NCBI GenBank assembly: GCA_046292385.1
Contig: JBKBRF010000017.1
Coordinates: 1 to 64,000, forward strand
From: Armatimonadota bacterium
Lineage (GTDB): Bacteria; Armatimonadota; SYMT01
DNA length: 64,000 nt
Reading direction: 5' to 3'
Position numbers and translations under genes: made by a program. Positions 36,844 to 41,868 of the stretch are shown here, one piece after another; position 1 is the first letter of the stretch, and each line of letters starts with the position of its first letter. Under the pieces are notes generated by a model. It worked only from the letters and a program-made list of their open reading frames with translations, did no database searches and was not told where the DNA came from.

Positions 36844-36963
36844 CGACAGGCTGATCCACTGCCCCTCGGATGTTTCGACCATCCGGCAGGTGTGGGAGGC
36901 AAGCGGACGGGTGGGGGTGAACGTGGAGGGGTTCCCCATTCCTCCCGCTTCGAGTCCCTCCTC

Positions 36964-38007
36964 GTGAACCCGATCCAGACCCGTCTCCTCGATTACCAGG
37001 CGGAAGGCGACCGCGCTCTCCGCACCGCCGCCGGGCTGCTGCGCGCGGGCGGCCTCGTCGCCTTTCCTACGGAGACCGTCTACGGCCTCGGCGCCCTGGG
37101 CCTGAACCCTCATTCGGTGCGCCGGATCTTCGAGGCGAAGGAGCGGCCGGAGGCGGACCCGCTGATCCTGCACGTGGCGCTTCCGGAGTGGGCGCGGCTG
37201 CTGGCGGGAGAGATCCCCCACGCGTTCGAGCGGCTGGCCGCCGCCTTCTGGCCGGGCCCGCTCACGCTGGTGCTCCCGAAGAACCGGGACGTGCCGGACC
37301 TGGTGACCGCCGGCCTCGACTCGGTGGCGGTCCGGATGCCCTCCCACCCGGTGGCGCTGCGGCTGCTGCGGGAGGTGGGGGAGCCGCTCGCGGCCCCGAG
37401 CGCCAACCTGTTCGGGCACACCAGCCCCACCACGGCGGCGCACGTGCTCGCCGACCTGAACGGCCGGATCAACGCGGTGCTCGATGCCGGTCCGACCGAC
37501 GTGGGCGTGGAGTCGACGGTCGTCGACGTGCGCGGCGACACGCCGGTGCTCCTCCGGCCCGGTGGTATCTCCCGCGAAGAGCTGGAGCGGGTGCTCGGCC
37601 GGCCGGTCGAGCTGCACCGCGGCGGGGAAGTAGAGCTTCGCTCTCCCGGCCTGCTCGCCCGCCACTACAGCCCGCGGGCGGAGCTGCGTCTCTTCGCCGG
37701 GGATGACGACTCGGCGGTGCTCGCCGCCATACAGCGCGACCTCGCCGGCGAGGCTTCCCCGGACCAGGCGGTGCTCGCCTATCAGGAGGACGTGCCGGTG
37801 TTCCAGTCGCTGCCGGTGCGAGTGATCGAGCTGCCGTCCCGCACAGAGCCGGAGCGGGTGGCACAGCGCCTCTACGCCGCCCTCCGCGAGGCGGACGAAG
37901 CCGGCGCCCGGCTCCTCTACGCGCGCCTGCTGCCCCCCGGCGGCCTCGCCGAAGCGGTGAACGACCGGCTCCTCCGCGCCGCCTCCGGCGTCCTTCGAAC
38001 GGTCTGA
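36964..38007 (+). CDS. sua5: L-threonylcarbamoyladenylate synthase (Sua5-type TsaC)
   Basis: VAFPTETVYGLGA, FWPGPLTLV, AAPSAN, GVESTVVD, SPGLLARHYSP plus SUA5 domain. Confidence 0.93.
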   Translation: MNPIQTRLLDYQAEGDRALRTAAGLLRAGGLVAFPTETVYGLGALGLNPHSVRRIFEAKERPEADPLILHVALPEWARLLAGEIPHAFERLAAAFWPGPLTLVLPKNRDVPDLVTAGLDSVAVRMPSHPVALRLLREVGEPLAAPSANLFGHTSPTTAAHVLADLNGRINAVLDAGPTDVGVESTVVDVRGDTPVLLRPGGISREELERVLGRPVELHRGGEVELRSPGLLARHYSPRAELRLFAGDDDSAVLAAIQRDLAGEASPDQAVLAYQEDVPVFQSLPVRVIELPSRTEPERVAQRLYAALREADEAGARLLYARLLPPGGLAEAVNDRLLRAASGVLRTV

Positions 38008-38965: not shown

Positions 38966-39035
38966 TTGCGCCTCTGATATCGTGATGATATCATTCTGTC
39001 GTCGTGGTGACATCAGGGGCGAGGGCGGCCATACT
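38966..39035 (+). promoter_or_regulatory. Tandem sigma70 promoters overlapped by 11-bp phased TGATATCA-like operator boxes
   Basis: TTGCGC-N17-TATCAT (38966-38994, extended TGn) and GTGACA-N17-CATACT (39007-39035); boxes at 38975, 38986, 38997 and 39008. Confidence 0.7.
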
Positions 39036-39041
39036 GAGCGT

Positions 39042-39242
39042 ATGAGTGACTCGGCACCCCCCAAGAAACGGACGATGACGGCGGTCACCTATCCGAACCG
39101 CCTGCTGCACTACGACGACGACGAGGGAATGGCGCTGCTGCGCGAGATCGCGCGCCGGCACGGGCTCTCCCTCGCGGCGGCGCTGCGGATGCTCGTGAGA
39201 GAGGCCGCGGAGCGCCGCGGGATACGGAAGAAAACGGAATAG
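39042..39242 (+). CDS. Ribbon-helix-helix (CopG-like) DNA-binding protein
   Basis: 66 aa; beta segment, helix ALLREIARRH, GLS turn, helix LAAALRMLVREAA. Confidence 0.75.
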   Translation: MSDSAPPKKRTMTAVTYPNRLLHYDDDEGMALLREIARRHGLSLAAALRMLVREAAERRGIRKKTE

Positions 39243-39278
39243 GAGCCTATCCCTAGCGAGATCGGCTCTAGACTTTCG

Positions 39279-39348
39279 GCGCGGGCCGAAGTGCCTGGGT
39301 TCTCGTCTGCTAAACGAACCACCCCCAGGCGCACGTGCTTGCCCGCGC
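39279..39348 (+). ncRNA. Y-RNA-like A1 (Ro-binding stem; loop CUGCUAA)
   Basis: gcgcgggc-cg...cttgcccgcgc terminal stem, gtgcctggg/cccaggcgc upper stem. Confidence 0.75.
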
Positions 39349-39355
39349 ATCCTTT

Positions 39356-39477
39356 CCAGACGTAGCTCAACGGCAGAGCATCAGGTAAACCCTTCGGCGG
39401 TGACTTGCCCGGAGACGGGCCGGATGTTGAAGGTTAACGGCCCTTGAGGGGTGCAGGTTCGAATCCTGCCGTCTGGT
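39356..39477 (+). ncRNA. tRNA-shaped Y-RNA-like B1 (Ro helix replaces anticodon arm)
   Basis: Acceptor ccagacg/cgtctgg, D arm tagctc-aacggca-gagc, T arm gcagg-ttcgaat-cctgc; insert cttgcccg-gaga-cgggccg. Confidence 0.8.
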
Positions 39478-39584
39478 GTGAGATGGGCCGCTGCGAATCG
39501 GTTATCGGAGTTCAAGCCTTCCCGTCCCGACCTGTCGGGACGAGCCCACCGGGGGCACCCGATCGCGCTGCTTGCCTGTCTCGC
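39478..39584 (+). ncRNA. YrlA-like Y RNA C1
   Basis: gtgagatgggc-cg...cttgcctgtctcgc stem; interior T-loop-like ttcaagc hairpin, closed acceptor-like cgtcccga/tcgggacg, D-like agccc..gggc. Confidence 0.7.
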
Positions 39585-39588
39585 TTTG

Positions 39589-39656
39589 GAAGCGGGCCGG
39601 AGTGCCTGGGTTATCCTGTCACGATGAACCCCAGGCGCATGCAGCTTGCCTGCTTC
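39589..39656 (+). ncRNA. Y-RNA-like A2 (loop CUGUCAC)
   Basis: gaagcgggccggagtgcctgggttatc...cccaggcgc...cttgcctgcttc. Confidence 0.75.
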
Positions 39657-39689
39657 ACTCCTGGGGCTCTCCACGGAGCGGCCCCGGTT

Positions 39690-39812
39690 TCGGACGTAGC
39701 TCAGAGGTAGAGCACCAGGAAACCCCTTCGCTGCTCACTTGCCCGGAGACGGGCCGAAAGCTGAAGGTTACCTATACCCTGGCGGCCGCGGGTTCGAGTC
39801 CCGCCGTCCGGA
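39690..39812 (+). ncRNA. tRNA-shaped Y-RNA-like B2
   Basis: Acceptor tcggacg/cgtccgg, D arm tagctc-agaggta-gagc, T arm gcggg-ttcgagt-cccgc; insert acttgcccg-gaga-cgggccg identical to B1. Confidence 0.8.
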
Positions 39813-39840
39813 GTGTTCGCTCTCCTGGGAGCGGACTTTA

Positions 39841-39933
39841 GAGATGGGCCGCTGCGGCTCGCTTATCGGCACACAGGTGGGCTCGAGACCCACCACCCTT
39901 CGGGGTTGGCGAGCCGCGTCACTTGTCCATCTC
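39841..39933 (+). ncRNA. Y-RNA-like C2 (reduced YrlA-like)
   Basis: gagatgggc-cg...cttgtccatctc stem; ggtggg-ctcgaga-cccacc and accc-ttcg-gggt hairpins. Confidence 0.7.
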
Positions 39934-39939
39934 AGGTTA

Positions 39940-40100
39940 GAACCGACCCCGTGGGCAAAACGGGCTGCGCCTGGCTGTGAGGTGCGGATTTGTCGTCGCG
40001 GCGGAACGTCCGATATTCGTCCATATCGACCGTCCCGCCGCTCCTAATCTCCGCCCCTCTCGCTCAGGCTCGCCGTACCTTTGCCTACGCGGACCGGTTC
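39940..40100 (+). ncRNA. Unassigned long irregular hairpin RNA
   Basis: Nested pairings gaaccg/cggttc, cgtgggcaaa/tttgcctacg, gcctgg/tcaggc, gcgga/tccgc, gcggcgg/ccgccgc, cgatat/atatcg. Confidence 0.5.
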
Positions 40101-40103
40101 CTG

Positions 40104-40171
40104 GAAGCGGGCCGGAGTGCCTGGGTTATCTTAGGGAGATAACACCCAGGCGCGCGGAGCTTGCCCGCTTC
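40104..40171 (+). ncRNA. Y-RNA-like A3 (loop UUAGGGA)
   Basis: gaagcgggccggagtgcctgggttatc...gataac.cccaggcgc...cttgcccgcttc. Confidence 0.75.
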
Positions 40172-40233
40172 ACCTGTCGGGGTGCGGGGGACAACGGGGT
40201 CTCCCGCACCCTCCGGCCGAGGAGGGCCGTGCC

Positions 40234-41868
40234 ATGACCCAGTACCTGAAGAACGTTTTTTCCGCGCGTCAGACGCCGCAGTCGGAGCCGATCCCCGGCT
40301 CCGGGCAGGTGCCGAACAGCGCGGGCGGGTTCGCCTGGCAGGTCGACGATTGGGCCCGCCTCGATCGCTTCCTGATCCTCGGCAGCGAGGGTGGGTCGTA
40401 CTACGCCTCCGAGCGGAAGCTGACGCTGGAGAACGCGGACGCCGTGGTCCGCTGCCTGGAGGCGGACGGCGAGCGGCTGGTCCGCCGGGTGGTCGAGATC
40501 AGCGAGTCCGGCCGGGCGCCGAAGAACGACCCGGCGATCTTCGCCCTGGCGCTGGCGTGCTCCTTCGGCGACGAGCGGGCGCGCGCGGCGGCGTTCGCGG
40601 CGGTGCCGCGGGTCTGCCGGATCGGGACGCACCTGTTCCACTTCGCGGAGTTCGTAAACGGGATGCGCGGCTGGGGACGCGGGCTGCGGCGCGCCGTGGC
40701 GGCCTGGTACCAGGAGAAGCCGGTGGGGGCGCTTGCGCTGCAGGCGGTGAAGTACCAGCAGCGGGACCGGTGGAGCCACCGGGACCTGCTCCGGCTGGCG
40801 CACCCGGTGCCGGCGGACGAGGACCGCACCGCCCTCTACCGCTGGGTGACCCGCGGGTGGGAGCCGGAGCGGGCGGACCGGTTCGGCCGCGAGGGCGAGC
40901 TGGCGCTGGTCGGCGGCTTCGAGGCGGTGAAGGCGGCCGCCACGGCGGCGGAAGTGGCGGAGTGCATCCGCACCTACCGGCTGCCGCGGGAGGCGGTCCC
41001 GACGCAGTGGCTGACCGACCGCGAGGTGTGGCGGGCGCTGCTGGAGGAGATGCCGATGACCGCGCTGATCCGGAACCTGGCGACGCTGACCCGCGTGGGG
41101 CTGGTGACGCCCGGCTCCGTGGGGACCCGGAAGGTGGTGGAGCAGCTCGGCGACCGGGAGCGGCTCCGGAAGGCGCGCGTGCACCCGATCCAGGTGCTCT
41201 CCGCGCTGAAGACCTACGCCTCCGGCAAGGGCGTGCGCTCCGACCAGAGCTGGGCGCCGGTGCCGCAGGTGGTCGACGCGCTCGACGCGGCGTTCTACGC
41301 GGCGTTCCGGAACGTGGAGCCGACCGGCAAGCGGTGGCTGCTGGCGCTCGACGTCTCCGGCTCGATGGAGTGCGGAGTGATCGCCGGGTGCCCGGGGCTG
41401 ACGCCGCGGGTCGCATCCGCCGCCATGGCGCTGGTCACGGCGGCGGTGGAGAAGCAGTACACGGCGGTAGCGTTCGCCTCCGAGGGGACCTTCGGGTGCC
41501 GGAGCGGGAGCGGGCTGCGGCCCCTGGCGCTCTCCTCGCGACAGCGCCTGGACGACGTGGTGAAGCTGACGCAGGCGCTGCCGTTCGGCGGCACCGACTG
41601 CGCGCTGCCGATGCTCTACGCGCTGGAGCGGAGGCTCGAGGTCGACTGCTTCGTGGTCTACACCGACTCGGAGACGTGGGCCGGAAGCGTCCACCCGGCG
41701 CAGGCGCTGCGGCAGTACCGGGAGTGGATGGGGATCCCGGCCCGGCTGATCGTGGTCGGCATGGTCTCCAACGGGTTTAGCATCGCGGACCCGAACGACC
41801 CCGGCATGCTTGACGTGGTCGGCTTCGACACCGCCACGCCGCAGCTGATGACGGACTTCGCCCGCTGA
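40234..41868 (+). CDS. rsr: Ro60/Rsr TROVE-domain RNA-binding protein
   Basis: NSAGGF, RLDRFLILGSEGGSYY, KYQQRDRWSHRDLLRLAHP, MPMTALIRNL, vWA MIDAS DVSGSM, GGTDC, YTDSET, DVVGFD; SD ggagg. Confidence 0.96.
   Translation: MTQYLKNVFSARQTPQSEPIPGSGQVPNSAGGFAWQVDDWARLDRFLILGSEGGSYYASERKLTLENADAVVRCLEADGERLVRRVVEISESGRAPKNDPAIFALALACSFGDERARAAAFAAVPRVCRIGTHLFHFAEFVNGMRGWGRGLRRAVAAWYQEKPVGALALQAVKYQQRDRWSHRDLLRLAHPVPADEDRTALYRWVTRGWEPERADRFGREGELALVGGFEAVKAAATAAEVAECIRTYRLPREAVPTQWLTDREVWRALLEEMPMTALIRNLATLTRVGLVTPGSVGTRKVVEQLGDRERLRKARVHPIQVLSALKTYASGKGVRSDQSWAPVPQVVDALDAAFYAAFRNVEPTGKRWLLALDVSGSMECGVIAGCPGLTPRVASAAMALVTAAVEKQYTAVAFASEGTFGCRSGSGLRPLALSSRQRLDDVVKLTQALPFGGTDCALPMLYALERRLEVDCFVVYTDSETWAGSVHPAQALRQYREWMGIPARLIVVGMVSNGFSIADPNDPGMLDVVGFDTATPQLMTDFAR

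Follow-up and report, generated by a model that had tools for sequence, protein, structure and literature searches.

Here we describe the apical loops of three small RNA units, A1, A2 and A3, which lie in the non-coding region directly upstream of rsr, the gene of the Ro60 ortholog, in an Armatimonadota bacterium (GenBank assembly GCA_046292385.1, contig JBKBRF010000017.1). The window under analysis is the whole stretch of 64,000 nucleotides (nt), positions 1 to 64,000 of the forward strand of this contig, and all coordinates refer to it. The loops of the A units and of a substantial part of their homologs share the frame of a tRNA anticodon loop, that is, in tRNA numbering, a pyrimidine at position 32, U at 33, a triplet and a purine at 37 (Y-U-NNN-R). 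This feature is real and occurs far beyond chance. By their description the A units fit into a known class, the small hairpin Y RNAs of the YrlB/Yrn2 kind; the kind itself is known, but the anticodon-loop frame on such RNAs appears to be undescribed. As an explanation we tentatively favour that the A units are small Rsr-bound Y RNAs, the tip of which would be a look-alike of the anticodon arm engaging a factor that reads tRNA.

Apical loops of the A units and the host tRNAs

An earlier note, made from the letters of the window alone, had claimed that the A units have near-identical stems and display three different anticodon-loop mimics, for Ser-GCU, Asp-GUC and Pro-AGG. The loops are CUGCUAA in A1 (39307-39313), CUGUCAC in A2 (39616-39622) and UUAGGGA in A3 (40131-40137). 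The sequence confirms these positions and that each loop is the tip of a hairpin in a conserved unit, although only in A1 and A2 does the lowest-energy fold leave a loop of 7 nt. The three units are 82% identical on average (mean column identity over 78 columns). A1 folds with a stem of 4 base pairs (bp) under its 7-nt loop at -36.6 kcal/mol (z -3.28, none of 200 shuffles as good), A2 with a 5-bp stem including one G-U pair under a 7-nt loop at -30.4 kcal/mol (z -2.14, 10 of 200 shuffles as good), and A3 at -38.3 kcal/mol (z -4.15, 0 of 200). By sequence, Y32, U33 and R37 are present in all three loops.

For comparison the tRNA set of the host was taken from ARAGORN run on the genome, which gave 56 calls, some of them doubtful. 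The loop of A2 is identical to the host tRNA-Asp loop CUGUCAC in all seven positions. CUGCUAA of A1 agrees in six of seven with UUGCUAA of the host tRNA-Ser(GCU), and UUAGGGA of A3 agrees in six of seven with the host tRNA-Pro(CGG) loop UUCGGGA and tRNA-Pro(UGG) loop UUUGGGA, the only difference being at the wobble position 34. For 'Pro-AGG' no tRNA with this anticodon is among the calls. In common with a tRNA anticodon stem-loop the A units have the 7-nt loop, Y32 followed by U33, and on the 3' side a purine (37) and then A or C (38); they differ in having no tRNA body and in their unrelated, often 3-4-bp stems. The stem under the loop is 5 bp long in A2 and A3, 4 bp in A1 and mostly 3-5 bp in the homologs, compared with 5 bp in tRNA.

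On another contig of the source genome (G000:C5:199142-199303) ARAGORN found two adjacent tRNA-like genes with anticodon loops of 8 nt, which give the four-letter 'anticodons' ctct and cgaa.

Homologous units and their linkage to Ro60

Homologs were collected with two covariance models, R1, built from A1-A3, and R2, built from 27 hits; A1 itself scores 73.1 bits on R1 and 65.5 bits on R2. Matches of R1 are located upstream of Ro60 genes in Armatimonadota genome records, and this model matched 12 of the 151 sampled genomes of the phylum, source genome included, whereas R2 matched four of the eight genomes of the class. Within the taxonomic family, Ro60 is present in three of six other genomes, and all three have an A unit beside it.

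Metagenomes were searched with a stem-letter pattern that fixes GGGTT and CCCA and leaves the loop free. At least 120 metagenome stretches matched, and in 47 of the 120 loci listed a Ro60 fragment lies within the 400-nt flanks. Applied to the first 100 of these 120 loci, R2 gave 100 hits, 93 of them distinct, often three or four in tandem. In the alignment of the 93 distinct units 88.3% of cells are paired, compared with 73.9% after shuffling; 14 of 20 pairs change on both sides, and none of 500 shuffles reaches as high. The lower helix (99.1% of cells paired) and the upper helix (94.3%) are the best kept, with 11 of 15 pairs changing on both sides and again 0 of 500 shuffles as high. A search of phage and plasmid records with A3 by blastn gave no match in either collection.

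Among these loci it is common for three or four Y RNA modules to be arranged in tandem next to Ro60 (L039, L051, L054, L092, L101, L103 and L127). The loops usually differ between units of one locus, examples being the pair of units in L050 and three consecutive units in L127.

Enrichment of the anticodon-like loop in the family

The 127 unique pattern matches among those listed were reduced to 84 units, 43 being dropped because they formed fewer than three of the four variable upper-stem pairs or contained N. The apex of each of the 84 units was then folded with the stem forced, and its loop was called from the lowest-energy structure. A terminal loop of 7 nt was found in 29 units, compared with a mean of 5.2 (standard deviation 2.2, maximum 10) in 100 shuffles; among the rest, 14 units have a 6-nt loop, nine a 3-nt loop and seven a 5-nt loop. 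The 7-nt loop fits Y-U-NNN-R in 23 of the 84 units, while the same 100 shuffles gave a mean of 0.33 and a maximum of 4. By a looser count, in which at least three pairs had to close a 7-nt Y-U-NNN-R loop anywhere in the apex, 31 of 84 units (about 37%) carry the frame, against a mean of 2.2 and a maximum of 7 in 200 shuffles. These 31 units are spread over 17 of 42 clusters formed at 80% identity. Eleven further units, extra copies in the flanks and thus outside the pattern selection, fit in four cases by the lowest-energy fold and in five by the looser count.

The composition of the 29 seven-nt loops is close to that of real anticodon loops. Position 32 is C in 20 and U in 6 of them, and position 33 is U in 23. 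The triplet varies at each of its positions, with G17, U7, C3 and A2 at position 34, C14, A7, U6 and G2 at position 35, and A17, U9 and C3 at position 36. It is followed by A in 26 loops at position 37, and by A in 17, C in 9 and U in 3 at position 38. In the family G37 occurs in three loops, in two of which it follows G36, as in tRNAs (A3 and L127:362-434); since one of these two cases is A3 itself, this coupling is only a hint. The frame recurs on stems that are unrelated to each other, such as AUC/GAU, UCA/UGA, UCGA/UCGA, CACA/UGUG and UUGG/CCAA, and within one cluster of 31 members the triplet changes while the frame is kept. Compared by eye, other loops of the family are letter for letter those of host tRNAs for Asn, Phe, Cys, Lys, Ser(CGA), Ser(UGA), Glu and SeC. 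The earlier note had proposed that random loop lengths and a lack of U33/R37 bias among homologs would speak against mimicry; the homologs instead proved enriched for 7-nt loops and for U33/R37, with a triplet that is variable in a biased, not a free, manner.

One may ask whether such an enrichment could arise by chance, or as an artefact of fold prediction and of the search pattern. The loop calls do rely on the lowest-energy structure where stems have only 3-4 bp, the units were gathered by a pattern that fixes GGGTT and CCCA, and related sequences are not independent observations. The pattern, however, leaves the loop unconstrained, a similar share of anticodon-like loops (5 of 11) is found outside it, the loop is carried by 17 separate clusters, and the shuffles stay far below the observed values (maximum 4 compared with 23, and 7 compared with 31). 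Such an origin is largely refuted by the shuffles, the clusters and the units outside the pattern, and we regard it as very improbable.

Anticodon mimicry, display loop or relic

The explanation we favour, an anticodon-arm look-alike on an Rsr-bound RNA, has to be weighed against a number of observations that speak against it. Some concern the A units themselves. The lowest-energy fold of A3 adds a U-A and a U-G pair, by which its loop closes to 3 nt; host tRNA-Pro loops share the flanking letters of A3, so this closure is no argument against an open loop. The anticodon AGG is absent from the 56 host ARAGORN calls, GCU and GUC being host anticodons, and the stems of the A-unit hairpins bear no resemblance to the anticodon stems of host tRNAs. 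Others concern the family. By the looser count 53 of the 84 units (about 63%) are without such a loop, which means that the loop is not needed for the core role of the family. Many closing stems have 3-4 bp where tRNA has 5, pairing in the apical helix as modelled reaches only 63.1% of cells among the 93 distinct units, and the loop calls are lowest-energy predictions on short stems. The triplet is biased, with G34 in 17 of 29 loops and A or U36 in 26 of 29, which would also fit drift around one ancestral loop. Among 15 pattern matches in 14 viral-contig loci only the two units of L174 are anticodon-like, and the contig of L174 is as long as the metagenome contig of L050.

The surroundings add further points of the same kind. 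Neither a tRNA enzyme nor an anticodon nuclease was found linked to the locus. A Pfam search of 10 open reading frames (ORFs) within 5 kb on either side returned nothing related, and the Tgt and RtcB proteins of the host are encoded on other contigs. Transcript coverage comes from the one metatranscriptome run found, of a rhizosphere with a close relative, which holds 0.05 of the sampled words and yields three contigs on 39250-40300. One of them, 268 nt long with 8 differences, covers 39845-40111 only, that is, the module C2 described below and the spacer behind it, and ends where A3 begins. No A unit is covered in this run, and its contigs show no RNA ends.

It is quite possible that the tip is a generic U-turn display loop without any tRNA mimicry. 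A 7-nt loop would stably present a few single-stranded bases, its likeness to the anticodon being structural convergence, and its partner would be either a complementary RNA or the usual effector of Y RNAs, such as PNPase with its KH/S1 domains, which is known from Ro60-Y RNA-PNPase complexes. The absence of the anticodon-like loop from most members, the short stems unlike those of tRNA and the biased triplet just mentioned speak for such a loop. Moreover, as far as the accessible text of the respective papers goes, hairpin Y RNAs of small size have already been described in which the loop is small and rich in pyrimidines (PMC4201824), and the hairpin-shaped Y RNA-like RNAs of phage phiLo bind both Ro60 and PNPase (PMC12135203). 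On the other hand, the conserved frame extends beyond U33 to positions 32, 37 and 38 with a make-up that matches real anticodon loops, and several loops are letter for letter those of host tRNAs. The plain U-N-R rule of a U-turn is not kept, a purine being present at position 35 in only 9 of 29 loops, and mimics of the tRNA body are located in the same array.

Mimicry in the past instead of the present would be another way to account for the loops. In this case the Y RNA modules would descend from pieces of tRNA, and the loop would keep its ancestral frame with no tRNA-related role today. A tRNA origin of YrlA and Yrn1 has been proposed (Chen et al. 2014, in the accessible text), and tRNA-shaped and hairpin modules are indeed mixed in the array. 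We consider a relic improbable, as only selection would preserve a 7-nt frame through 17 clusters in which the stems have changed, and the rest of the A unit resembles animal Y RNAs and sbRNAs rather than tRNA.

Proposed role of the A units

On the explanation we favour, the A units are probably cut from one precursor, which they share with the two tRNA-shaped modules and the two larger ones, and the Ro60/Rsr protein encoded just downstream probably binds them via their conserved bulged lower helix. Their tip would be under selection for likeness to an anticodon arm, with a short stem, a 7-nt loop, pyrimidine-U at its 5' side, A (rarely G) and then A or C at its 3' side, and a variable triplet in between. 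The tip may fold as an anticodon-type U-turn and may engage a factor that normally reads anticodon loops, whether a modification enzyme, an anticodon nuclease or another tRNA-binding partner. The RNA would then either tether Rsr to this factor or titrate the factor. The display of an anticodon loop would complement the tRNA-shaped modules of this array, in which it is the D, T and acceptor arms that are mimicked. The loops of the A units may, in the terms of the earlier note, act as decoys or sensors for anticodon nucleases, or recruit modification enzymes or synthetases.

A bolder proposal, which we consider rather unlikely, is that Ro60 arrays display tRNA in pieces, the tRNA-shaped modules providing the elbow and the acceptor end, and the small hairpins providing Ser-, Asp- and Pro-like loops. 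If this were so, Rsr would carry a panel of anticodon-arm baits, which would be modified by, trap or report on the enzymes and toxins that attack particular anticodon loops, or alternatively would dock Rsr and its nuclease partner at the places where anticodon arms bind.

Most toxins that cleave tRNA act on the anticodon arm, and so do many modification enzymes. Should the tips be look-alikes of this arm, the mimicry known from YrlA, which comprises the elbow and the acceptor end only, would be extended to the very part of tRNA that YrlA lacks. Candidate modifications would then be Q at 39618 in A2, which contains U-G-U, the recognition element of Tgt, an enzyme that the host has; t6A at 39312 in A1, where A follows U36; and m1G at 40136 in A3, where G follows G36. 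Colicin E5, which cleaves the Asp, Asn, His and Tyr loops, would cover loops of the A2 type. Ro60 would also be linked to tRNA-damage signalling, as shown for the rsr-yrlBA-rtcBA operon of Salmonella in the accessible text of Hughes et al. (2020, PMC7790460). More generally, the A units bear on what bacterial Y RNAs recruit beyond PNPase, and on what the second Y RNA does, the small one that all species studied so far possess.

Organization of the module array

The non-coding region at 39275-40233 holds seven RNA modules, all on the + strand, and is followed directly by the ORF of rsr (40234..41868, + strand), which encodes a Ro60 ortholog of 544 amino acids (Pfam vWA_Ro60, E 1.3e-63; TROVE, E 5.4e-47). 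The units A1-A3 lie 61-960 nt upstream of this ORF on the same (+) strand, which is within the distance of about 2 kb from rsr taken as the mark of a bacterial Y RNA, the start of Ro60 being 61 nt past A3. A helix of the form GGGCCG.../...CUUGCC, matching the Ro60-binding site of Y RNAs, is present in every module of the array. The motif GNCGAAN0-1G, known from the 5' strand of the bulged helix of bacterial Y RNAs according to the accessible text of Chen et al. (2014, PMC4201824), is found as GCCGAAG in A1, while A2 and A3 carry GCCGGAG, one letter off.

The array opens with A1 (39275..39350), composed of the Ro60-site helix GCGGGCCGAAG / CUUGCCCGC, a 9-bp upper stem, and the apical 4-bp stem with its 7-nt loop. 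The second small hairpin unit, A2 (39586..39658), has an apical 5-bp stem UUAUC/GAUGA and scores 92.6 bits on the covariance model R1. The third, A3 (40101..40173), adjoins rsr, has an apical 5-bp stem UUAUC/GAUAA and scores 95 bits on R1.

Two modules are tRNA-shaped. B1 (39356..39477, Rfam tRNA 49.6 bits) has an open acceptor stem, a D arm and a T arm, and its anticodon loop is replaced by a 56-nt insert, which is a Ro60-site helix capped by a GAGA loop. In B2 (39690..39812, Rfam tRNA 50.2 bits) a Ro60-site insert of 58 nt takes the same place. ARAGORN found no tRNA gene in the window, and the Rfam tRNA matches fall on these B modules and none on the A units. In both B1 and B2 the acceptor stem is open, the arms follow in the normal 5'-to-3' order, and the Ro60-site helix grows from the anticodon stem; published YrlA RNAs have the reverse topology, with a closed acceptor hairpin and ends in the Ro60 helix. 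The B modules could be excised by RNase P and a 3' tRNA-processing enzyme and could in this way serve as punctuation between the other units; they do not encode a CCA.

The set is completed by C1 and C2, which are larger Y RNA modules. C1 (about 39478..39585; R2 30.4 bits, L156 666-773) folds at -53.8 kcal/mol (z -3.32) and has a Ro60-site helix, the motif UUAUC and an apex that is branched. C2 (about 39838..39938; R2 31.2 bits, L156 1027-1124) folds at -49.7 kcal/mol (z -3.37) and has a Ro60-site helix, CUUAUC and an apex of two hairpins. In both modules UUAUC follows the upper stem. One hairpin of C1 ends in a 7-nt T-loop-like loop, UUCAAGC, and one of C2 in the 7-nt loop CUCGAGA, which fits Y-U-NNN-R.

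Between A2 and B2 there is a short G+C-rich hairpin (39661..39687, + strand, -18.4 kcal/mol, z -2.8). The leader of rsr contains a strong hairpin (40179..40212, + strand; -40.1 kcal/mol and z -3.02 for 40170-40233), followed by a GAGGAGG ribosome-binding site. No U-run follows this hairpin, so it may be a processing or stability element. Directly upstream of the array there is a small ORF without Pfam match (38982-39242), preceded by two overlapping divergent promoter-like sites (38985-39035), where shuffles gave an expectation of 0.2 for the two found.

Gene neighbourhood

A Sua5/TsaC gene (36892-38007), about 1.3 kb upstream of the array, was taken up as a possible clue to t6A37 modification and rejected as a coincidence, because in five of five relatives it is on a different contig from Ro60. 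Pfam searches of 39 of the 87 long ORFs at 13 Ro60 genome loci showed no consistent partner and no anticodon nuclease. Among these neighbours RtcB was found at one locus, RlaP at two and an NYN nuclease at one, the rest being unrelated.

Comparison with known Y RNA systems

The closest known counterparts of the A units are Yrn2 of D. radiodurans and the YrlB RNAs of S. Typhimurium and M. smegmatis, small hairpin Y RNAs with small pyrimidine-rich loops, as described in the accessible text of Chen et al. (2014, PMC4201824). Like the A units, they have their genes next to rsr, in the company of a tRNA-like Y RNA, and the same text gives the Y RNAs of M. smegmatis as processed from one precursor. 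Within it the loops of Yrn2 and YrlB are not called anticodon-like; the sole remark there on an 'anticodon arm' refers to Yrn1, with a loop of 6 nt. A full-text search of the literature brought up no paper in which the loops of small Y RNAs are likened to anticodon loops, in agreement with the statement of the earlier note that no description was known; Fig. S4 of Chen et al. and Sim and Wolin (2018) may bear on this.

YrlA shares with the A units that it is a Ro60-bound RNA imitating a part of tRNA, and tRNA enzymes act on it; the accessible text of Chen et al. (2014, PMC4201824) thus offers a precedent for tRNA enzymes acting on Y RNAs and also contains the proposal that YrlA and Yrn1 are possibly tRNA-derived. 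The parts imitated are different. YrlA copies the acceptor arm and the D and T arms; in the accessible text of Wang et al. (2018, bioRxiv 10.1101/312249) it 'lacks the anticodon loop', in line with the earlier note, whereas the A units, plain hairpins, would copy only the anticodon arm. The YrlA family is not among the 13 Rfam matches obtained at E up to 10.

Likened by description, the Yrl1 and Yrl2 RNAs of the Thermus phage phiLo are also simple hairpins with a CGAA motif, located upstream of a Ro60 gene, and they bind Ro60 and the PNPase of the host; an anticodon-like loop is not mentioned in the accessible part of this paper (PMC12135203).

The animal Y RNAs and nematode sbRNAs resemble the A units in another respect. 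Both have the bulged Ro60 helix and an upper stem that ends in UGGG and is followed by UUAUC, with the animal-type UGGGUUAUC motif. Due to this common helix and motif, the model of the nematode sbRNA family RF01656 (ceN72-3_ceN74-2) matches A2 with 32.5 bits and A3 with 32.1 bits, below its cut-off of 38, which is exceeded by units of two relatives (39.4 and 38.2 bits; L155 1186-1254 and L159 1094-1163). The A units differ in being bacterial, in forming a tandem array beside rsr and in carrying a small apical hairpin instead of a large loop domain. According to the accessible text of Kowalski and Krude (2015, PMC4726728), UUAUC is conserved in sbRNAs and vertebrate Y RNAs and needed for their activity in DNA replication, and bacterial Y RNAs are 'not homologous with' the vertebrate clades. 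The presence in bacterial units of UGGGUUAUC, which is functionally important in animal Y RNAs and sbRNAs, bears on the question of a common ancestry of bacterial and animal Y RNAs.

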